From contig CAZPYM010000002.1 in assembly GCA_964590105.1 (NCBI GenBank), forward strand, positions 90,697 through 154,696: a stretch of DNA of 64,000 bases, read 5' to 3'. A program made the translations under genes and the position numbers. The notes under the pieces are model-generated. The model was not told where the DNA came from, made no database searches, and was given only the letters and a program-made list of their open reading frames with translations. Below, in pieces: positions 4,773 to 60,031 of the stretch. Each line of letters opens with the position of its first letter. Within the stretch, counting starts at the first letter, position 1. The DNA comes from an uncultured Gammaproteobacteria bacterium (lineage in GTDB: Bacteria; Patescibacteriota; Patescibacteriia; UBA11705; JABHMO01).

Positions 4773-6152
4773 ATGGAAGATCAAAATCTACAACTTTGGC
4801 AAGCAGTGCTGGGCGAACTCGAGCTAACGCTGAGTAAGGCAAGCTTTACCACTTGGCTGAAAAATACTTTTATTATTGAAAATGAAGACGGCCGGATTGT
4901 TATCGGCGTGCCGAATACTTTTTCCCAAGCCTGGCTAAAACAAAAATATCATCAGAAAATTTACAACCTAATACAATCAAAAACCAAAGACCGAATTAAA
5001 GAAATCCACTATAAAGTCCAAAGCGTAAAAAATTATCAGGAAGAAATTAAAACACTGAAAAAACAAATTGTTGAAACAGCTCAAAATCAAGTAATACCCA
5101 CCAACCCTTCTTCCCCGACAAAAGTTCTGGGGCTCAATCCCAAGTATATATTTAACAATTTTATTGTTGGTAAAGGCAATGAACTGGCGCACGCCGCTTC
5201 CATTGCCGTGTCAGAACGACCGGGATTAACTTATAATCCTCTTTTTATTTACGGCGGCGTTGGTCTCGGAAAAACTCACTTATTGCATGCCGTTGGCAAT
5301 ACTATTTCTGCAAAAGATCCGAGTAAAAAAATTCTTTACGTTACTTGTGAGCAATTTACAAATGATTTCATAAGCGCCATCTCTTCCGGCCGAGCGGAAA
5401 AATTTAATATTGCCTACCGCACAGTGGATGTCCTCCTGATCGACGATATTCAATTTCTAACCGGCAAAGAAGGAACACAGGAAGCGTTTTTTCATACTTT
5501 TAATGACCTTCACCAGCGGGACAAACAAATTGTTTTGACTTCCGACCGACCGCCAAAAGCGATCGCCACGCTGGAAGACCGGCTTCTCTCAAGGTTTGAA
5601 TGGGGGATGATCGCTGATATTTCTCAGCCTGATCTTGAGACCAGAATTGCCATTTTAGAAGCAAAATGCCAGGAAAAAGAATTTGAATTGGAACGGGACA
5701 TCATTCAATATATTACCCTGAATATTCAAAACAACATTCGGGAGCTCGAAGGCGCTCTAAATAAAATAATAGCTTATCATCAACTGAACAAAATCACTCC
5801 CACCCTTGAAAACGTTAAAAAGATACTTTTTTCCATTTCCACTTCCAGCAAAAAAACCGGCGCTGTGTCCGCTCGTCAGCTGATTGAACTGGTTTGCGAT
5901 TTTTATGATTTGACAATTGACGATATGCTCGGCAAGAGCCGGGAAAAAAGACTGGCTTTCCCTCGCCAAATCATTATGTTTCTTCTTCGGGAAGAACTTC
6001 AATGCTCTTATCCAATGATTGGCAATGAACTCGGCGGCCGTGACCACACCACGGCTATGCACGCCCACGAAAAAATTTCCAGAGTCATGGAGTCGGATGA
6101 AAAAACCAGGCAGGAAATAAATTTAATCAAGCAAAGAGTTTACGCGCACTGA
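4773..6152 (+). CDS. dnaA: Chromosomal replication initiator DnaA
   Basis: 459 aa. Walker A GGVGLGKTHLL, the box VII/sensor region and C-terminal DNA-binding helices (GGRDHTTAMHAHEKI) are present. Confidence 0.97.
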   Translation: MEDQNLQLWQAVLGELELTLSKASFTTWLKNTFIIENEDGRIVIGVPNTFSQAWLKQKYHQKIYNLIQSKTKDRIKEIHYKVQSVKNYQEEIKTLKKQIVETAQNQVIPTNPSSPTKVLGLNPKYIFNNFIVGKGNELAHAASIAVSERPGLTYNPLFIYGGVGLGKTHLLHAVGNTISAKDPSKKILYVTCEQFTNDFISAISSGRAEKFNIAYRTVDVLLIDDIQFLTGKEGTQEAFFHTFNDLHQRDKQIVLTSDRPPKAIATLEDRLLSRFEWGMIADISQPDLETRIAILEAKCQEKEFELERDIIQYITLNIQNNIRELEGALNKIIAYHQLNKITPTLENVKKILFSISTSSKKTGAVSARQLIELVCDFYDLTIDDMLGKSREKRLAFPRQIIMFLLREELQCSYPMIGNELGGRDHTTAMHAHEKISRVMESDEKTRQEINLIKQRVYAH

Positions 6153-6457
6153 TATCCTGTGGAAAACTCCCCGGTTTCAAGGGATAAAATAAGTGGATAA
6201 AAACAAGTCCAATCTGTTCATAAATATCTACCTCGCGGTTTTCCTTCAATAGTCTGTTTTTGTCCCCTGCTCTGATACAGGCATATCAACAATTCATCCA
6301 TAGACCTGTTTGCATAAAATTAAATTAAACAAAGGCTTATCCACCGCTATCCACAGCATTATTATTATTATTATTTTTATATATATATAATTTCTTATAA
6401 TAAGAAGAAGAGCAAATCAATTAAATAGAAAAAAATAAGTCATAAAAAAACTGGGAT
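6153..6457. promoter_or_regulatory. Candidate oriC (DnaA boxes plus an AT-rich unwinding element) between dnaA and dnaN
   Basis: DnaA-box-like 9-mers: TGTGGAAAA 6158-6166, AGTGGATAA 6192-6200, TTATCCACC 6337-6345, CTATCCACA 6347-6355. These are followed by an (ATT)n/(TA)n tract at about 6358-6410. Two more near-consensus boxes lie upstream of dnaA (TTATCAACA 4637-4645, TTGTCCACA 4688-4696). Confidence 0.7.
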
Positions 6458-7585
6458 ATGAAATTAACTTGCTTGCAAGAAAATTTAAACTTCGGACTGC
6501 AGTCAACAGGACATTTGGTAAATAAAAATATTAATTTACCGATTCTTAGTAATGTACTTCTAGAAGCCAAGGAAGGAACCTTAAAACTCTCAAGCACGAA
6601 TCTTGAAATCGGCATCAGCTGTGTGGTTCGTTGCAAAGTTGAAACAGAAGGGTCTTTTACTGTTGACGCCAGGCTTTTGTCTGAATATATAAATTTATTG
6701 CCCAATGAACAAGTAAATATAAATTTAGCTAGTGATGATTTTTTGAAAGTAGCCTGTCGAAATTCAGAAACCAAAATAAAGGGCATCGTGGCGGATGACT
6801 TCCCTGTCATTCCAAAAATCGACAAGCAAAATCCGTATCGTGTAAAAATAGATGAATTTAAAAAAGCAATTTCGCAAGTAATTTTTACGGTCGCCTCATC
6901 AGAAAACAGACCGGAGATTAGTGGAGTATTGCTTAGTTTTAATAAGTTTAAGAAAAATGAATTATTTTTAGCTGGCACGGACAGCTACCGTTTGGCGGAA
7001 AAAAGTGTCGCCCTGGTTGAAGGTCAACAAGAGCAAGACGTGATAGTTCCACTAAAAACAATGCAGGAAGTTTTGCGAATATTGAATAATTTGAAAGATC
7101 AGGCCAATAATGTTGAACAGCTGGACATTTATATTTCAGAAAATCAAATTCTATTTAATTGCGATTCGATTGAATTAATTTCCCGACTGCTTGAAGGGCA
7201 GTATCCTGATTATAAACAAATAATTCCGCAAGAAACAAAAACCAAGATCATAACTTCGGTTGCCGAGCTAAGCAAAGCCATAAAAAAAGTGGCGTTATTT
7301 TCCAAAGCCGGAATTTTTGATATTAATTTAGTATTTGAAGCTCAAAAAGGACTGACAGTCAGCGCAGTGAATACTCAAGTCGGAGAAAGTAAAACTGATC
7401 TTGATGTAGAATTTACCGGCGAAACAAATGATACAACTTTGAACTTTCGATATTTATTGGACGGCTTGAATAATCTAGACTCAAGCGAAGTTGAAATTAG
7501 CCTAGTGGACAATAATCTCCCCTGTATTATGAAAGCAAAAGGAAAAGATGATTATTTGTATATTGTAATGCCGATTAAACAATGA
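6458..7585 (+). CDS. dnaN: DNA polymerase III beta sliding clamp
   Basis: 375 aa, directly after dnaA. N-terminus MKLTCLQENLNFGL...; the LAGTDSYRLAE and LLEGQYPDYKQIIP motifs are present. Confidence 0.95.
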   Translation: MKLTCLQENLNFGLQSTGHLVNKNINLPILSNVLLEAKEGTLKLSSTNLEIGISCVVRCKVETEGSFTVDARLLSEYINLLPNEQVNINLASDDFLKVACRNSETKIKGIVADDFPVIPKIDKQNPYRVKIDEFKKAISQVIFTVASSENRPEISGVLLSFNKFKKNELFLAGTDSYRLAEKSVALVEGQQEQDVIVPLKTMQEVLRILNNLKDQANNVEQLDIYISENQILFNCDSIELISRLLEGQYPDYKQIIPQETKTKIITSVAELSKAIKKVALFSKAGIFDINLVFEAQKGLTVSAVNTQVGESKTDLDVEFTGETNDTTLNFRYLLDGLNNLDSSEVEISLVDNNLPCIMKAKGKDDYLYIVMPIKQ

Positions 7586-29354: not shown

Positions 29355-30227
29355 ATGTCGTCAGTAAATAAACTTATAACTGAATTTCTTTTTGACTTGA
29401 GAAAAAGAAAAAGAACCGAGCGCACGGCGCGCAACTATGATTTGTATTTACGCAGATTTTCAGGCTGGCTTGAGCAAAAGCAGATAGAAAACATGGGGCA
29501 AGTAACGCCGGAACTTATTGCCAAGTATAAAATTTGGCTAAAAAAAATAAAAAACCCGATAAAGAAAATTTATTTGAAAGAAAATACTCAGAATTATCAT
29601 TTGATTGCGCTAAGGGAGTTTATCAAGTATTTGGGAAAGAAAAAAATTTTGTCAATTACCAACCCGAAAATCAAATTGCCAAAAACCCTGAAAGTTAAGG
29701 CCGGCTTTCTCAGTAAAGAAGATGTTCAACTTTTATTGGAATCGCCAATGAAAATTTCACAACCCAGATTGATTCAGCTTCGCGATAGAGCGATATTGGA
29801 ATTGTTTTATTCTACCGGAATTCGAGTTTCTGAGGAGGCAAGCCTGCAGGTTAGCGATATAAATTTTCAAAAACAAGAAATTCTTGTTTGTTCCGGGCAG
29901 AAGAAAGAACGCAGAATTAAATTTTCCAATCAAGCCAAGCATTGGCTGGTTCAATATTTGGAAAGAAGAAAAAATAAAAGTAAATATGTTTTTGTGAGTC
30001 ACGACCGAGCAAAAGCAACAAGAGAAGATGCCGGGCTTAGCGCCAGAAGTTTAGAAAGAATAGTTGAAAAATATGCTAGAGGCGCCGGTATTGACAAAAA
30101 AGTCACTCCGCAGATGCTTCGTCATACATATGCATTTCTTTTGGTCGAAAGAACAGCTGATCCGCGGTCAGTTAAACAAAAACTCGGTCACCTTTCTCTA
30201 AATTCAGCGATGAGATACTTTGATTAA
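29355..30227 (+). CDS. Tyrosine site-specific recombinase (XerC/XerD-like integrase family)
   Basis: N-terminal SAM-like domain, then catalytic residues in the contexts GIRVSE (R), LRHTYAF (H-x-x-R) and GHLSLNSAMRY (H...Y). Confidence 0.85.
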   Translation: MSSVNKLITEFLFDLRKRKRTERTARNYDLYLRRFSGWLEQKQIENMGQVTPELIAKYKIWLKKIKNPIKKIYLKENTQNYHLIALREFIKYLGKKKILSITNPKIKLPKTLKVKAGFLSKEDVQLLLESPMKISQPRLIQLRDRAILELFYSTGIRVSEEASLQVSDINFQKQEILVCSGQKKERRIKFSNQAKHWLVQYLERRKNKSKYVFVSHDRAKATREDAGLSARSLERIVEKYARGAGIDKKVTPQMLRHTYAFLLVERTADPRSVKQKLGHLSLNSAMRYFD

Positions 30228-39658: not shown

Positions 39659-39714
39659 AATCGGTAAAGTGAATTGCTGGGACATTGACAATTATAGGGC
39701 AAAAGGAGGCAATA

Positions 39715-40719
39715 ATGAACCGAAAATCATTCAAGCCTGGCTATACGCTGGAGAGATTGCAAGAGCTTGAAGTGGCAGTCAGGGCGTGGTACGTCGGACT
39801 TCCAAAGCCGAAAATTCCCAATGCTGTGAGAATTACCGGCATGAGTTCCCGGACTGTTTTTTTGTATTTCCGGGCGGCGGAAAGGGGCAGTGGTCCCCAG
39901 CCATTGGTAATGGAGAGGCTGTTTGAAGCGACCGGAAATCCGGTTTTTCTTTTGAATGAACACGAAAAAGAGGCTTTCCGCGAACGCGGATTTGCCATGC
40001 CGGATGAGGTATTGCTTGGACAGAATGATTTTGCAGAGCCTCCGGCTGTCAAGACCAAAGGTAGGCGGCAAATTTCCATGCCTTTTGCAGAAGACAGGGG
40101 CGCGGCGATGGTCAGAGTGATTGCCGAGTGGTTTGACAGTCTGCCGTCGCCGAAAAGAGACCACGCGCAGAATCTCCTCGGAGTTGACGTCGCCACGGTT
40201 TACCGTTGGATCAAGGGGAAGACATTTCCCAATCTTGATTCTGTGTGCTCTTTGTGGAATACACTAGGAAATCCAGTTTTCCTTTTGCGTGAAAATGAGT
40301 TAAGTATTGCAAAAGCGCTTGGTTATGTGCCGGCGGAGGATTACCCGACACTGGAATCTTTCAGCGGGAAGTCTGTCTCTGACCAGCCGGCGTCCGCGTC
40401 GCTGAAAATTGCTGTCAGGACTGAAGCAGACTCGGTCAACGTGGAAGTAGCTTTTGGCAAAAAGGCGAGCAAGCTCCTGGTTGGCGTGCTGACCAGCGTG
40501 AGCGTGATCAGCGATTTGCTGCAAGAATCTGGTCTTTCCGGCGCGCCGGAGTCGATCAGATACAAGGCGGCAGAAGCAGTGATTAAAATAGTTACAGCTT
40601 TCAATTTGAAAACAGATGATTTTAGAAAAAGAACGCCCGAGGGGGGGGATGATGCGGAAACTCGCAAAAGGATGGAAATTGTTTATGGATTATTTCGACA
40701 ACCAGGAAAGGAGGAATGA
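39715..40719 (+). CDS. Tandem helix-turn-helix protein, 334 aa (internal duplication of an HTH-like module)
   Basis: RBS AAGGAGG, 6 nt from ATG 39715. Two paralogous modules: LPKPKIPNAVRITGMSSRTVFLYFRAA...EATGNPVFLLNEHEKEAFRERGF and LPSPKRDHAQNLLGVDVATVYRWIKGK...NTLGNPVFLLRENELSIAKALGY. A helical C-terminal part follows. Confidence 0.65.
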   Translation: MNRKSFKPGYTLERLQELEVAVRAWYVGLPKPKIPNAVRITGMSSRTVFLYFRAAERGSGPQPLVMERLFEATGNPVFLLNEHEKEAFRERGFAMPDEVLLGQNDFAEPPAVKTKGRRQISMPFAEDRGAAMVRVIAEWFDSLPSPKRDHAQNLLGVDVATVYRWIKGKTFPNLDSVCSLWNTLGNPVFLLRENELSIAKALGYVPAEDYPTLESFSGKSVSDQPASASLKIAVRTEADSVNVEVAFGKKASKLLVGVLTSVSVISDLLQESGLSGAPESIRYKAAEAVIKIVTAFNLKTDDFRKRTPEGGDDAETRKRMEIVYGLFRQPGKEE

Positions 40720-53800: not shown

Positions 53801-54649
53801 TCAATAATTTGTTATAAATTCTAACACATTTTTTGCGGTATCAAACTTTGCTTCATGCAATTCCTTTGCCAGCCTTAACCCCCGATAGTACAAGGCAACT
53901 TTAAATATTGGATCATAGTTTTTTTCGTGTCCGTATAATCGTTTTGCATTCGTCAAAAGTATTTTTGCATCCTCTGTGCGATCAGTATAGCCGATCAACT
54001 GCAGTGCTGTGTAGGCAAAATCATAATATTTTAATGACCAACCCGCCCAGCCAGTATCAATCAATAACAATTCGCCGTCATTCAATCTGCCAATATGCCA
54101 TGGCACGATATCATGATGCTGGAATGCCCAGTTACTACCAAACTCACTCATTACACCAATAGCCTGGTCAACAAAGGTTTTTGAAATTAATTCATTTTCA
54201 AGTAAATAGATAGAATTAGTATGGATGTTTTTTTGAAAATTACCTTTTCTAAACATCCAATCATCTTTAATCGTCTGCGGTAGGTCTTTAAATAATATAT
54301 TTCTCATCACCTTTTGCAATTTCATGTATTTATCCAAATAACATTGAATTGGCTCATTGCTACCGCCCAATTCGCCCAACCACACTACCTGTCCTGTTAT
54401 ATCCGAAAACACTATCATTCCATCATCCAAGGTTGTTGGTAGAAACTTAAATCCGCAATCATTTTTCAGAGCAAGATTATGTAAAAATTTTTGGTTATTA
54501 TATTCACGATCGATCATCTTTTTACCGGCGTCAGTCATTGGAGTCTTAATAAAAACTTTTGACGAATCAATTTTTCGACTAGCTAAAACAACCGAATAGT
54601 CGTTAGTTTTCTTAATCGTTGAATTGTAAATATATTTTTCTAATTTCAT
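53801..54649 (-). CDS. Aminoglycoside/choline-kinase-like phosphotransferase (APH family) protein
   Basis: FQHHDIVPWHIG (HxDxxxxN-like) and LLLIDTGWAGW (DxG) are present. ATG at 54649 preferred over the TTG at 54664. Confidence 0.65.
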   Translation of the reverse strand: MKLEKYIYNSTIKKTNDYSVVLASRKIDSSKVFIKTPMTDAGKKMIDREYNNQKFLHNLALKNDCGFKFLPTTLDDGMIVFSDITGQVVWLGELGGSNEPIQCYLDKYMKLQKVMRNILFKDLPQTIKDDWMFRKGNFQKNIHTNSIYLLENELISKTFVDQAIGVMSEFGSNWAFQHHDIVPWHIGRLNDGELLLIDTGWAGWSLKYYDFAYTALQLIGYTDRTEDAKILLTNAKRLYGHEKNYDPIFKVALYYRGLRLAKELHEAKFDTAKNVLEFITNY

Positions 54650-54662
54650 ATAAAGTTTTTCC

Positions 54663-54687
54663 AAATTTCAAAAGGGCTTGAAAAAAA
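54663..54687. repeat. Right arm of the 25-bp perfect inverted repeat
   Basis: aaatttcaaaagggcttgaaaaaaa. See 53717-53741. Confidence 0.8.
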
Positions 54688-54721
54688 ATTAATAAAGAGT
54701 TTGTTTTTTGCTATTTCAGCT

Positions 54722-54960
54722 AACTGGTTTCTATGCGAAAATAGTTCGCCTTTGATACAAAATTGCGCAGTAAAGGCGAAGTTCGGCAATTTGGATGTTA
54801 CTCCGCCACGCGGAAGACTTCATCCAGCGAAGTGATTCCTTTCAGCGCTTTCATCAGTCCGTCCTGGACCATGGTAATCATGCCGTTCTTGACGGCGAAT
54901 TCCTGCATGTCGTATTCAGAAACTTTGCCGCCGAGAATTATTTTTTCAATTTCCTTGGTC
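54722..54960. repeat. Left copy of a 239-bp direct repeat (pilB 3' end plus downstream sequence)
   Basis: Aligns base-for-base, with no length change, to 55570-55808. The coding-homologous part (54798-54960) has 7 mismatches in 163 nt. The downstream part is more diverged. Confidence 0.9.
54798..54960 (-). pseudogene. Detached 3' fragment of a pilB/gspE allele (last 54 codons)
   Basis: Minus-strand translation TKEIEKIILGGKVSEYDMQEFAVKNGMITMVQDGLMKALKGITSLDEVFRVAE*, against TKEIEKIILSGKVSEYDMQEFAIKNGMITMVQDGLMKALKGITSLDEVFRVAE* in the intact gene. Homology ends abruptly at 54960. Confidence 0.85.
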
Positions 54961-54967
54961 GTCTAGC

Positions 54968-54996
54968 TTGACATAGGCCAGAAGATGTGCTATCCT
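54968..54996 (+). promoter_or_regulatory. Sigma70-type promoter of the cassette between the direct repeats
   Basis: TTGACA (54968-54973), 17-nt spacer, TATCCT (54991-54996). The GATGTGCTAT motif is shared with the 32.76-kb promoter. Confidence 0.6.
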
Positions 54997-55049
54997 GATA
55001 AAAGTCAGTAATGGTATTGATAAGTCAAACCTTAACAAAGGAGGAAGTC

Positions 55050-55442
55050 ATGGCAACAGACGGACCAACCCCTGCATCTTGTGATCAAGAGATTTTTCAG
55101 AAAGGCGAGCCCGTGGCCTTTTTGGACGGTAGTTCAAATGCCGTCGAAAATTGGGTTCAAGAAGTCGCCAAAAAGGCAAATGCTCGTGTCGACTGGCATT
55201 ACAGTGGCGGTATCGCTCAGGTCCTTCATTTTGGAGACATGGAAAGCCGCCGGCGTGTTGAAAAAGCAATCGTGAATATGCAGGAAGTCGACAACCCTAG
55301 CGTTATGCGTCGATTAATAGCAGGCTCGCCTGGTTTGTATCGCAAGGGCGTTACAGAAGCACCAAAAGGCGCAGTCGCTGGGTTCATGGATCCGATTTCC
55401 GGCAAGCAAGCCTATATAGTGGTCGACTCAAGCGAGGATTAG
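55050..55442 (+). CDS. Orphan soluble protein, 130 aa (GC-richer cassette)
   Basis: RBS AAAGGAGGAAG. MATDGPTPASCDQEIFQKGEPVAFLDGSSNAVENWVQEVAKKANARVDWHYSGG... I recognised no family. Confidence 0.6.
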   Translation: MATDGPTPASCDQEIFQKGEPVAFLDGSSNAVENWVQEVAKKANARVDWHYSGGIAQVLHFGDMESRRRVEKAIVNMQEVDNPSVMRRLIAGSPGLYRKGVTEAPKGAVAGFMDPISGKQAYIVVDSSED

Positions 55443-55468
55443 TTTACGTATTTTGCGCTCCACTGAAT

Positions 55469-55506
55469 ACCGCCAATATACCACAAAGGTTGAGGCGGTT
55501 TTTTTA
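55469..55506 (+). terminator. Rho-independent terminator of the cassette
   Basis: accgcc...ggcggt stem followed by T8. Confidence 0.6.
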
Positions 55507-55569
55507 TTTAAAAAATTGAAAAAGGGCTTTTTAAAAAATAAATAATTATTTATTTTTTCTTTTTTACGG

Positions 55570-55808
55570 AACTGGTTTCTATGCGAAAATATTTCGCTTT
55601 AGCCGGAAAGTCTGGTAACAAAGGCGAAGTTCGGCAATTTGGATGTTACTCCGCCACGCGGAAAACTTCATCCAGTGAAGTGATTCCTTTCAGCGCTTTC
55701 ATCAGTCCGTCCTGAACCATGGTGATCATGCCGTTCTTGATGGCGAATTCCTGCATGTCGTATTCAGAAACTTTGCCGCTCAGAATTATTTTTTCAATTT
55801 CCTTGGTC
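55570..55808. repeat. Right copy of the 239-bp direct repeat (part of the intact pilB gene)
   Basis: See 54722-54960. The copies are offset by 848 bp. Confidence 0.9.
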
Positions 55809-57436
55809 ATGATCATAATTTCATAAATGCCGATCCGGCCCTTGTAGCCGATGTTGTGGCAAACTTCACAGCCGGGGCTTTTGAAAAATTTCATATTTGC
55901 CAGATCCGGTCGGTCAGGATGGCCTTCGGGTATTGCTTCTAATATTTTTTTGGCTTTTTCCAGTTTTTCCGGTTCCACTTCTGCTTCCTGGCGGCATTTT
56001 TCACACAGCCGGCGGACTAGCCTCTGTCCCATGATTGCATTAAGAGCCGGCGCCATTAAAAATGGTTGGACTCCCATGGCCAGAAATCTGGGAATTGCTC
56101 CGGCCGCGCTATTTGTATGAATAGTGGATATTACCAAGTGGCCGGTAAGCGCCGCGTTGATAGCCACGTCAGCGGTTTCAAGGTCGCGAAGCTCGCCGAC
56201 CATAACAACATCAGGATCCTGACGCAGGATTGAGCGCAGACCATCGGCGAAAGAATAACCTTTGCTATGATCGATTTGGCTTTGGTTGATTCCTTCAAGT
56301 TTATACTCAACAGGATCTTCGAGCGTGATGACTTTAACTCCTTCAACATTTAATTTATTTAAAATCGCGTACAAAGTGGTTGTTTTACCGGAACCGGTCG
56401 GGCCGGTGGTGACAATCATGCCGTTCGGCCGTTCGGCTTGTTCTTTTAGATTGGCAAATGATTTGCCGATTAAACCAAGATCTTCGAAGCTCAGGCCGAC
56501 AGTGCTGGATTTGAGCAAACGCATAACCACGCTCTCTCCCCAGGTGGTCGGTAGTGTGGAAACACGGACATCGATTTTTTCTTTTGTCAGTGAAATTGTA
56601 AAACGCCCGTCCTGCGGCTTGTCAGTAATATTAATTTTCAAACCAGATAATAATTTAACTCTGGAAATAACTTTTGACCAGCTATCTTTGTCAATCGAGG
56701 CGGTATCATGCAAAATTCCGTCAATGCGGAATCTGACTTTTACGTTTTTATCTTCAGCTTCAATATGGATGTCTGACGACCCGGCCTGAATTGAAGCTGC
56801 AATAATCAGCGTAACCATTTCAGTCATGTTTACTTTTTTAATATGAGCATCCAGCGCCTTTAGATCAGTGGCAATTTTTTTGAATTCTTCTAGCTCTTCT
56901 TCCTTGATCTCAACACCGGCAACCGGTTTTTTGTATTTTGGCAGTTTGGCGTAAATGGCCAGCGCTTTGGCCAAATTTCTTTCAGAAATTAAATATATTT
57001 CCGTGTGGGCGCGCAAAGATTCTTCTAGACTGTGCTGAATTTTTTCAATTTCCGGATTTTCTGGCTCAGTGGTGGCCAGGCGCAGTTGCTCGCCAGTATT
57101 GACGAAGCAGACGATTTTTTGTTCTTGGCAAACATTTTGCGGAATGGTTTGTAGAGCTTCGGCGCTTATTGGGAATTCTGTAAAATCAATGTAGGGGAGA
57201 CCCAAGCCTTGCGCATTGGCTTTTATTTTTCCTTCATTTTCATTAATTGTTATTTGTTCCAGCTTGTCGACAAGCTTTTTCGCCACCGGAATATCGTCGG
57301 TTAGAGAGCCTTTTTTGGTTTTGGGAGCAGTTGACTGGCGGTCGTCAGACGCCTGAGACGCAGCTTGCTTGCCCGTAAGGCTGGTTTTGCCTTTGGCAGT
57401 CAGGAGGTCTTCAATTGAGGAGGTTGCTTTGACCAT
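55646..57436 (-). CDS. pilB: Type II/IV secretion system ATPase (PilB/GspE family)
   Basis: 596 aa. Walker A GPTGSGKTTT, Asp box, Walker B VMVGELRD, His box and a tetracysteine motif (CEKC...CEVC) are present. Confidence 0.93.
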   Translation of the reverse strand: MVKATSSIEDLLTAKGKTSLTGKQAASQASDDRQSTAPKTKKGSLTDDIPVAKKLVDKLEQITINENEGKIKANAQGLGLPYIDFTEFPISAEALQTIPQNVCQEQKIVCFVNTGEQLRLATTEPENPEIEKIQHSLEESLRAHTEIYLISERNLAKALAIYAKLPKYKKPVAGVEIKEEELEEFKKIATDLKALDAHIKKVNMTEMVTLIIAASIQAGSSDIHIEAEDKNVKVRFRIDGILHDTASIDKDSWSKVISRVKLLSGLKINITDKPQDGRFTISLTKEKIDVRVSTLPTTWGESVVMRLLKSSTVGLSFEDLGLIGKSFANLKEQAERPNGMIVTTGPTGSGKTTTLYAILNKLNVEGVKVITLEDPVEYKLEGINQSQIDHSKGYSFADGLRSILRQDPDVVMVGELRDLETADVAINAALTGHLVISTIHTNSAAGAIPRFLAMGVQPFLMAPALNAIMGQRLVRRLCEKCRQEAEVEPEKLEKAKKILEAIPEGHPDRPDLANMKFFKSPGCEVCHNIGYKGRIGIYEIMIMTKEIEKIILSGKVSEYDMQEFAIKNGMITMVQDGLMKALKGITSLDEVFRVAE

Positions 57437-58648: not shown

Positions 58649-59029
58649 ATGCAATTTCACTGGCGTTTATTTATTGCTTTGCTGGTTATCTCTATTTTTG
58701 TATCCGGTGGAGCTGTTTATTTTTGGCAGCAAGGCGTTCTAATGAATGACCAAGTTTCGATACAGCAAGCTGATGAAGTTAATCCAGTTGAACTGCAAAC
58801 TGTTCCGGCGGCAGAATGGCGGGAAACGGTGCGCTATTATTGCGAACAAAGCGGCGGTGCGTTTATTAATGACAACTGCGACTGTCCTTCGGAGTTCGGG
58901 GCTGATATGTATGAGAAACCATCCGGCCAGTGTCAGACTACTTATGGCGGTCCCGGCGGCGAGCTCGGACAAGCAATGAATGCCTGCATCGGTCTGCATT
59001 TGCAGTTGGATGAATGTTTGAATAAGTGA
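58649..59029 (+). CDS. Hypothetical membrane-anchored Cys-rich protein, 126 aa
   Basis: N-terminal TM (LFIALLVISIFVSGGAVYFW). The extracytoplasmic part has 6 Cys. I recognised no family. Confidence 0.5.
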   Translation: MQFHWRLFIALLVISIFVSGGAVYFWQQGVLMNDQVSIQQADEVNPVELQTVPAAEWRETVRYYCEQSGGAFINDNCDCPSEFGADMYEKPSGQCQTTYGGPGGELGQAMNACIGLHLQLDECLNK

Positions 59030-59077
59030 TTAGCCTGGAACGTGGAGAGTGATAAAGTGAAATTAATTTTATATTAT

Positions 59078-60031
59078 ATGGAATCAATTTTTAAACAAAG
59101 AATTGGTTATAAGGGGGATTTGAAGGAAATTGCAAAAGATATTTGTAGAGATTTTAGTTTTGGGCATTTTGTGAATTGTAAAACAGTTCTCATAGGTTAT
59201 GAAGATTTTAACTTCTTTTTAGAAACAACAGAGGGCAAATTTTTCGTAAAAATATTTTCGAATGAAAGAACGCTTGATGATTGCAAACGAAACGTTGAAG
59301 TAATCGTAAAAGCATTGGAAGCCGGCGTTTCTGCTCCGGGGTTACACAAATCACCACAGGGATATTTACATCTTCTGGAGATTGATCAATCAATATTAAG
59401 GATTTGCGTCATGAATTTTATTGATGGGGAAGATTTTTTTACTTCTGGGGCAAAAATTACCCGAGAAGATATGCTTTCATTGGCACGCCAAGCGTCTTTG
59501 ATCAATTTAATAGAAGTTAAACCGCCCAAAATTTATGATCCATGGGCGATTACTAACTTTTCCCTGGAATTTGAAAAGAAGAGCCAATACTTAGAAAAAG
59601 AGGATTTTGATATTATTAAGACACTCGTTGAAAGATTCAATAATTTCAAAATAGAAACATTGCCTTATTGCTTTGTCCATGGGGATATTATTAGAACTAA
59701 TGTAATTAAAGATAAGAATAATAAGATTTGGATCGTGGATTTTTCTGTTTCAAATTACTATCCGCGCATTCAGGAATTGGCAGTGTTGGCTTGCGATATC
59801 TTATTCAATAAGGATAACAAAGAAGAAAGTGAACAAAATTTTAAGGGGGCTTTAGAAGAGTATCAAAAAATAATAAAATTAACCGTAAGAGAAATTGAAG
59901 TTTTACCAAATTATATTAAATTTGCTCATGCCATGCATGTACTATCTGCAATCTATGAGAAGAAGGTTAACGGTAATGGCTCTAACGAAAATGAATATTT
60001 TCTTAGTATTGGAAAAGCTGGATTAAAATAA
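59078..60031 (+). CDS. Phosphotransferase-family (APH/homoserine-kinase-II-like) kinase
   Basis: CFVHGDIIRTNVI (HxDxxxxN) and IWIVDFSVSNY (DFS) are present. ATG at 59078 preferred over the GTG at 59042. Confidence 0.7.
   Translation: MESIFKQRIGYKGDLKEIAKDICRDFSFGHFVNCKTVLIGYEDFNFFLETTEGKFFVKIFSNERTLDDCKRNVEVIVKALEAGVSAPGLHKSPQGYLHLLEIDQSILRICVMNFIDGEDFFTSGAKITREDMLSLARQASLINLIEVKPPKIYDPWAITNFSLEFEKKSQYLEKEDFDIIKTLVERFNNFKIETLPYCFVHGDIIRTNVIKDKNNKIWIVDFSVSNYYPRIQELAVLACDILFNKDNKEESEQNFKGALEEYQKIIKLTVREIEVLPNYIKFAHAMHVLSAIYEKKVNGNGSNENEYFLSIGKAGLK

Follow-up and report, generated by a model that had tools for sequence, protein, structure and literature searches.

A single-gene cassette between two copies of the pilB 3' end in a Patescibacteria chromosome: a probable insertion of foreign DNA into a gene end

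The principle of insertion at gene ends is already known: the cryptic prophage e14 occupies the icd gene of Escherichia coli, integrative and mobilizable elements (IMEs) can reside in gene 3' ends, and cis-mobilizable elements (CIMEs) accrete there. The E. coli icd/e14/icdC arrangement, in which icdC is the displaced pseudogene, contains a duplicated end of 165 nt with 12 nucleotide differences, which correspond to nine synonymous codons and two conservative D/E codons. CIMEs are decay products of integrative and conjugative elements (ICEs) or IMEs, and their cognate integrase is encoded in the adjacent element (PMC5704250). In the present study we analyzed a stretch of 64,000 nucleotides (hereafter the window) from the genome of an uncultured bacterium placed in the Patescibacteriota (contig CAZPYM010000002.1). 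The window is chromosomal, with dnaA and dnaN located at 4773-7585, and it contains two direct copies of the 3' end of pilB that bracket a cassette with one gene of 130 aa, the cargo gene. The repeat pair is interpreted as the attL/attR-like footprint of a small foreign DNA that was inserted into the pilB end, a reading to which we assign a probability of roughly 0.6. Unusual at this locus are the recombinase-less single-gene unit of only 848 bp, the stacking of single genes at pilB, the covarying hairpins and inverted motifs (termed M below), and the occurrence in Patescibacteria with a circular-looking relative. To our knowledge, the mobile DNA of Patescibacteria is poorly characterised, and no description of such cassettes was found in the literature on bacteria of the candidate phyla radiation (CPR).

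A repeat search of the window detected a direct repeat of 256 nt with 89% identity and a spacing of 848. The 239-nt core of this repeat (54722-54960 and 55570-55808) contained 21 mismatches in an ungapped comparison at the 848-nt offset, which reproduced the indel-free alignment described in an initial annotation of this DNA. A weaker extension to 54663 and 55513 contained a 2-nt indel (298 nt, 87.6% identity by BLAST), while at the other side the homology ended sharply at 54960 and 55808. Translation identified the right copy as the end of the intact pilB gene with its downstream region, and the left copy as a detached fragment, since it had no start codon and was preceded by a stop codon. 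Both assignments agreed with the initial annotation, as did the end of the homology at 54960, ahead of the TTGACA at 54968. The region between the two copies consisted of a promoter, one gene and a terminator. The sigma-70-like promoter started 7 nt past the end of the repeat homology, and the earlier statement that the cargo gene has its own promoter and terminator was borne out by these elements:

55646-57436, minus strand: pilB, 596 aa, the ATPase of a type IV pilus/type II secretion system, intact target gene (Pfam T2SSE 1.5e-123, and MshEN)
55553-55808: right repeat copy, the last 53 codons and stop of pilB (55646-55808) with 93 nt downstream, weaker extension to 55513
54705-54960: left repeat copy, weaker extension to 54663
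54798-54960, minus strand: detached pilB 3' fragment, 53 codons and stop, without start codon and with a stop codon immediately upstream
54968-54996, plus strand: cassette promoter, TTGACA, 17-nt spacer and TG-TATCCT (10/12 consensus matches, extended -10)
55050-55442, plus strand: cargo gene of 130 aa, in convergent orientation to pilB (open reading frame and homolog search)
55469-55506, plus strand: intrinsic-terminator-like hairpin CCGCC...GGCGG followed by U7, 3' of the cargo gene (RNA fold)

The arrangement of the locus was A-B-A and not A-B-A-B: beyond either repeat, the sequences at the 848-nt offset were unrelated. A plain tandem duplication was rejected, as the unit was not repeated head to tail and omega (dN/dS) between the copies was 0.10. 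Both repeats and both unique flanks were present with 100% identity in contigs L001, L019, L020 and L021, which come from four different JGI/ENA assemblies. Because four independent assemblies spanned the structure at this identity, it is not an assembly artefact, and the order of repeat, cassette and repeat given previously was corroborated.

The divergence between the two copies differed between their coding and non-coding parts. The coding part (163 nt) contained seven nucleotide differences, at 54816, 54828, 54867, 54876, 54893 and 54932-33, which affected five codons synonymously and two conservatively (S/G and I/V), exactly the count made before. Nei-Gojobori analysis (NG86) of this part gave Sd = 5, Nd = 2, dS = 0.164 and dN = 0.016, hence the omega of 0.10; at most two non-synonymous among seven changes has a binomial P of 0.006 under full neutrality. 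Taken alone, a synonymous bias based on seven differences is suggestive, not decisive. The non-coding part of the repeat carried mismatches at 14/76 positions compared with 7/163 in the coding part (18% vs 4.3%; Fisher P = 0.0008), confirming its stronger divergence, and an 18-nt hairpin loop within it was wholly different between the copies. The left-copy residues G and V were found at the respective positions in 10/80 and 17/80 functional PilB orthologs. Polarising the seven differences with the outgroups L188 and L189 gained no information. The low dN/dS, the lower divergence of coding than of non-coding sequence, and the normal occurrence of G and V in orthologs argue for a foreign-allele origin of the left copy. 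It therefore resembles the terminus of a different, functional pilB allele rather than a duplicate decaying in place, in support of the proposal in the initial annotation that it had evolved as coding sequence elsewhere.

The locus was compared with the described systems. As in the case of e14 (and phage 21) in icd, the insertion is at the 3' end of a housekeeping gene, and a replacement end borne by the element would keep the gene intact. The duplicated segments are of similar length (165 nt in e14, 163 nt of coding sequence here), and the differences are nearly all synonymous or conservative in both. However, e14 comprises 15 kb and encodes its own intE and xisE, whereas the window unit, with its single cargo gene, spans 848 bp and encodes no recombinase, and its repeat also takes in about 135 nt of structured downstream sequence. 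The window unit resembles CIMEs (ICESt1/CIME) in that the attL and attR sites would be kept while integration and transfer genes are lacking. The partial target ends that lie between accreted CIMEs are comparable to two displaced pilB ends in the window and to a tandem structure on contig L131, both described below. In contrast to CIMEs, the window units consist of one gene with a promoter and a terminator of its own; no ICE or IME remnant was found in the insertion stack at pilB, and no cognate integrase was found.

The incoming DNA was most likely an 848-bp circle that would have carried the 130-aa gene with its promoter and terminator and about 300 nt of the pilB end of another strain. Recombination may have taken place within the last 53 codons of pilB or in the downstream region. 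One repeat copy would now complete pilB and leave the gene intact, and the other would be a dead fragment beyond the cassette; the direction of the transfer is likewise presumed. The reaction may have been catalysed by a trans-acting tyrosine recombinase, for example a Xer-like enzyme, or by the homologous recombination machinery of the host. Site-specific recombination in trans is consistent with two events within the last 12-53 codons that restored an intact gene, and with the identical truncation points on L131. A homologous single crossover fits the young event equally, given the long homology and the lack of a recognisable core.

An older event at the same gene end was shown by a third pilB remnant. 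When the terminal 36 nt of pilB of 15 relatives were used to scan the window, the best 30 matches (at least 24/36) fell in three places only: at the end of the gene itself, in the left copy of the repeat and at 50452-50487. The sequence at 50452-50487 shared 31/36 nt with the pilB end of L028, 30/36 nt with that of L023 and about 22/36 nt (hand count) with the present pilB end of the window. It encoded the FRVSE type of terminus, as found in the closest relatives, and was located 26 nt upstream of the start of a conserved 203-aa gene. In L026 the homolog of this gene follows pilB after 34 nt, while in the window the two are 5.2 kb apart. The genes on the upstream side of pilB (a 287-aa gene and ychF) were syntenic between the window and the relatives L023-L031, Kuenen- and Falkowbacteria whose PilB proteins were 66-72% identical to that of the window. 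The features of this region are:

50452-50487, minus strand: old displaced pilB 3' end, TSGDEVFRVSE with the stop in register (tblastn and translation)
49814-50425, minus strand: conserved 203-aa gene, ancestral downstream neighbour of pilB (59% identical homolog in L026)
50488-55645: insertion stack of 5.2 kb, bordered by the old pilB end on one side and by the stop codon of the present pilB on the other (synteny with relatives, Pfam, G+C)
50551-51432: PHP-domain gene in the stack
51658-52704: 348-aa gene in the stack
52808-53506, minus strand: RIO1-type protein kinase in the stack (Pfam RIO1 1.7e-43)
53801-54664: 282/287-aa gene in the stack

Since a third pilB remnant stands beside the gene that follows pilB in L026, at least two insertions into the end of pilB brought in the region 50488-55645 and displaced the native pilB end. 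The pilB end had thus been hit earlier, giving an accretion stack of single-gene insertions, of which the 130-aa cassette is the newest and pilB-proximal member. The G+C content across the stack ranged from 0.28 to 0.50, which fits mixed origins of its members. Partial pilB ends (54798-54960 and 50452-50487) delimited only two of the five gene units in the stack. Kinases of the RIO type occur mainly in archaea and eukaryotes.

A second, independent footprint of this kind was detected in a distant relative, on contig L131, which encodes a cargo-family member (56% identical) fused to a longer protein. The relevant feature of this contig is:

L131, 467-765, 1786-2084 and 3168-3345: a segment with the promoter of a ComEC/MBL-like gene and its first 46 codons, present in three direct copies

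These three copies bracketed two different cargos, one of them the cargo-family member. Copies 1 and 2 were cut at the same nucleotide, while copy 3 continued into the gene. After the cut, copies 1 and 2 each ran into the same arm of about 130 nt, which was about 95% identical (hand count; 137/170 over a longer stretch). The gene fragments themselves (omega 0.22-0.34, dS 0.39-0.53) were much more divergent than this arm. A tandem insertion of two related recombinase-less elements that duplicated a gene 5' end would be expected to give such a structure, and the contig may be read in this way. Repeats near the distant homologs on L119, L150, L123 and L132 were not counted as gene-end duplications, as they looked like ordinary repeated intergenic or terminator sequence.

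Contigs related to possible free forms were also identified. L104 and L105, two contigs of 1565 bp from different JGI samples, represented the same 1424-bp unit in different rotations and had identical ends of 141 bp. The unit contained a cargo homolog of 129 aa (79% identical), a 140-aa gene and two junction hairpins but no replication or recombination gene, and the cargo homolog of L104 had a homologous AGCTTGAC promoter context. Because an isolated assembly-graph cycle of 1424 bp would give rotated contigs with a 141-bp overlap, the unit is either a circle or a tandem array. Contig L003 from a third JGI sample, corresponding to 54789-55731, differed from the window only at 55715 and 55724, where its right repeat copy carried the left-copy alleles, while the right-copy alleles were kept at 55664 and 55676. 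Such an order of right-copy and then left-copy alleles is compatible with the junction of an excised 848-bp circle.

Empty sites and donor alleles were searched for among relatives. An exact PilB look-up returned no match, the closest PilB relatives in GTDB shared at most 72% amino acid identity, a PilB homolog search was dominated by proteins of double length, and a search with the left-copy peptide recovered only the same population or distant ends. The pilB gene of L189 (80% nucleotide identity) was followed by other genes. An apparent split pilB on L188 was rejected because it merely contained an in-frame TAG. This TAG, at 1096-1104, replaced the conserved Tyr of GRIGIYE and resulted in two gene calls of 365 and 56 aa; a nonsense mutation, an error or recoding may account for it.

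Two kinds of conserved elements were identified at the unit boundaries, a motif M and a junction hairpin:

55512-55537: M motif (AAAATTGAAAAAGGGCT...) at the right end of the cassette
54663-54687: further copy of M
53717-53741: further copy of M, inverted
53524-53551: further copy of M, inverted
52800-52827: further copy of M
53551-53611, plus strand: canonical junction element, AACGTATC..GA, hairpin, TGGGTGGAG
L103, 27-102 and 625-705: copies of the junction element
L104, 746-862, and 1400-1424 joined to 1-95: copies of the junction element
55570-55645, plus strand: variant of the junction element, with the M motif on one side and the pilB stop on the other, and with flanks ..CTATGCGA and TGGATG

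The M motif family (AAAATTKMAAAAGGGCT) had a site-like architecture, with inverted arms of about 7 nt and a spacer of 6 nt. The pair 53717-53741 and 54663-54687, inverted around the 282-aa gene, was perfect over 25/25 nt and extended to about 70 nt at 79% identity, and the pair 52800-52827 and 53524-53551, inverted around the RIO kinase, matched over 28 nt at 89%. Inverted M pairs also flanked the cargo-family gene of L103, and single copies were present on L106, L108 and L112. The left M expected for the cassette was absent, and the pilB fragment was located in its position. The junction elements displayed conserved flanks around hairpins of unrelated sequence. In a trimmed alignment of the five canonical copies, seven closing pairs were 100% paired in 5/5, with compensatory double changes in five of the seven and an invariant G.T as the second pair; the stem arms were picked by eye, which biases the covariation count upward. 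A constrained scan of 1.4 Mb recovered exactly the five canonical copies, a loose structural scan gave extra matches at background level only, and a comparison with Rfam gave no match above noise. The non-coding parts of the repeat (54722-54797 and 55570-55645) were variants of the junction element, and the right flank abutted the pilB stop. The same cargo was accompanied by different junction hairpins in the window and in L103. Possible degenerate junction elements were also seen at 51520-51580 and 50527-50539.

These boundaries bring integron cassettes to mind. As in integrons, the window units are single-gene modules of about 0.8-1.4 kb without their own recombinase, stacked at one spot and possibly existing as free circles, with structured hairpins and conserved flanks at the unit boundaries. 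An integron array was nevertheless rejected, as no intI or attI was found next to the stack, whose neighbours are pilB and the 203-aa gene. An attC identity of the junction elements was rejected on two grounds: the GA and TGGGTGGAG flanks stand in a box order opposite to RYYYAAC...GTTRRRY, and the hairpins do not move along with their gene, as judged from the same cargo in the window and L103. Furthermore, the window cassettes differ from integron cassettes in having their own promoters, and integron insertion duplicates no gene end.

Other systems provide partial parallels. Integrative mobile elements exploiting Xer (IMEXs; CTXphi/TLC) and the pdif modules of Acinetobacter carry cargo without their own recombinase and presumably use a Xer-type recombinase of the host; in pdif modules one or a few genes lie between inverted short sites. 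The inverted M motifs around the 282-aa gene and the L103 cargo gene resemble the pdif layout, while M as a Xer site and the insertion point as a dif site are both unsupported. Unlike the event in the window, recombination of IMEXs and pdif modules yields no gene-end repeats of 250-300 nt. It is possible, though doubtful, that Patescibacteria have a cassette-capture system that is not linked to an integrase. Such a system would be hitherto undescribed. Its single-gene modules of 0.8-1.4 kb would each have a promoter and terminator and would be bounded by inverted M sites and by junction hairpins (GA, covarying stem, TGGGTGGAG). They would exist as recombinase-free tiny circles and would be stacked at the ends of housekeeping genes by a Xer-like recombinase of the host, sometimes dragging along or replacing 50-300 nt of the target end.

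Recombinase genes were sought by comparing about 55 open reading frames of at least 100 aa, judged to be real genes of the window, with Pfam. Only one was detected:

29355-30227, plus strand: Xer-like tyrosine recombinase, 290 aa (Pfam Phage_integrase 3.6e-34; XerA/XerD/XerC-like in NCBIfam, below the equivalog cut-offs)

It is followed by two tRNA-Arg genes (tct and cct) up to 31137. No recombinase was found in the 5.2-kb stack, and no integrase up to 20 kb away from it in either direction. The Xer-like enzyme is a possible candidate for a trans-acting integrase.

Several observations weigh against an insertion of foreign DNA into the pilB end. A second pilB end was present in 0/80 other Patescibacteria pilB loci, and pilB is therefore not a general target. 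Neither an empty site nor a close pilB allele was recovered by the PilB look-up, the GTDB scan or the left-copy peptide search, and the comparison with relatives proposed in the initial annotation, once performed, yielded no empty site. There is no recombinase between the repeats, where the 130-aa gene is the only gene, as had been stated, and the nearest one, the Xer-like gene, is 25 kb away. The circularity of L104 could reflect a tandem array, and the L003 pattern could result from gene conversion or from the assembler having switched copies across 38 nt of identity. With the gene copy under selection and decay confined to the left copy, the probability of the observed synonymous bias rises to about 0.056 by hand calculation. 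Of the earlier proposal, the gene-end-replacing insertion was thus supported by the footprint, the e14 parallel and the older pilB end, while the site-specific integrase was not, as the 848-bp unit has no recombinase and neither an empty site nor a clean excision junction was found. An identical footprint would be expected from a single crossover of the RecA type and from a transformation scar. Campbell-type integration by single crossover agrees with the locus in its A-B-A arrangement, in a circle length equal to the repeat spacing of 848 bp, in requiring no site-specific recombinase and in its reversibility (compare L003). However, it is mainly a laboratory or plasmid phenomenon and not one of recurrent natural cassette stacking at a single gene end. 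RecA-type exchange would be inefficient between copies that have by now diverged by about 11%, and with the 36 nt of homology that are all the older event retained.

Under a transformation scar, linear donor DNA would have been joined by homology-facilitated illegitimate recombination after natural transformation, without a discrete element or a circle. The donor fragment would have comprised the donor pilB end and the genes downstream of it (among them the 282-aa gene and the RIO kinase), joined beside a resident 130-aa cassette. Such a scar would explain the allele-like divergence, the abrupt break in coding sequence, the absent left M and the lack of a recombinase; the regions downstream of pilB vary among relatives, and CPR bacteria carry competence genes. 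It is unlikely all the same, as two independent breaks fell within the last 12-53 codons of pilB and left the gene intact both times, which is expected of gene-end targeting, and as the cargo family occurs on a circular-looking contig of 1.4 kb. The same truncation point and arm for two cargos on L131 also disfavour random illegitimate joins as a general cause. A local origin, by which the pilB end was copied in place through template switching or unequal exchange between intergenic motifs and then decayed or underwent gene conversion, is quite improbable. The M motifs and junction elements beside both copies could promote slippage, L003 shows exchange between the copies, and neutral decay of one copy is not formally rejected with seven differences. 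Against these stand the A-B-A arrangement, a non-coding divergence four times that of the coding part with the 18-nt loop entirely different, and the change of both residues to states of functional orthologs. The older remnant is also nearer to the alleles of relatives than to the present gene, which implies that foreign ends replaced the native one at least once. A silent cassette serving as a pilS-like donor for gene conversion, or the template and variable repeats of a diversity-generating retroelement, has very little to recommend it: a promoterless detached copy of a gene end does lie near the expressed gene and L003 suggests exchange, but only two conservative residues would be exchanged, and in an ATPase rather than a surface protein. 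A Pfam scan detected no reverse transcriptase in the window, and the mismatch types (G/A, C/T, A/G and CG/TC) were not adenine-specific. A collapsed or chimeric assembly of the pilB ends of two strains would suit a family often found on short contigs that break in repeats, and it is effectively refuted by the four assemblies, which were obtained from different samples and pipelines.

If foreign DNA was inserted into the pilB end as proposed, the element would be reduced to a single small gene and a patch of homology while still leaving the classic signature of integrative elements. The pilB stack, the hairpins, the 1.4-kb relative and L131 would point to a cheap and recurring acquisition of single genes at protected sites in bacteria with reduced genomes. 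A capture system, if true, would functionally be an integron without a linked integrase. If only a homologous single crossover was involved, the locus would still illustrate, cleanly and in a natural setting, the origin of gene-end duplications. The pilB-like fragments also call for caution in annotation.

A second lineage-specific insertion was observed on the other side of pilB. All close relatives have the 287-aa gene next to ychF, while in the window the two are separated by 58649-60031, which contains a 126-aa gene and a phosphotransferase of the APH family (329 aa). No gene-end duplicates were found at this insertion.

The initial annotation regarded the 130-aa gene as an orphan, which was not upheld: its product had at least 134 database homologs, mostly from bins of Parcubacteria, Kuenenbacteria and Paceibacteria. 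The cargo protein had no match in Pfam, PADLOC or NCBIfam. C11 and a DWHYSGG motif were invariant in the family, and the AlphaFold2 (AF2) model (pLDDT 89) displayed a ferredoxin-like alpha/beta fold, for which the PDB contained no match with E < 1e-3. Most family members were located on contigs of 1-2 kb, and none was found on known plasmids. Their contexts varied by lineage, one member being located between mfd and dprA and another among small hypothetical genes, and no flanking repeats were found around the closest well-assembled homologs (P0007 and P0010). The distribution of the family is mobile and patchy. One homolog (39% identical) was encoded at 39695-40030 of a 595-kb uncultured phage (LR756511.1). 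On L119 (3950-4744), L150 (4001-4717) and L131 (2280-3023), the 130-aa domain formed the N-terminal half of proteins of 238-264 aa, which shared a conserved C-terminal extension (..GQLVLDDP..VVVVDxGVAEVF).

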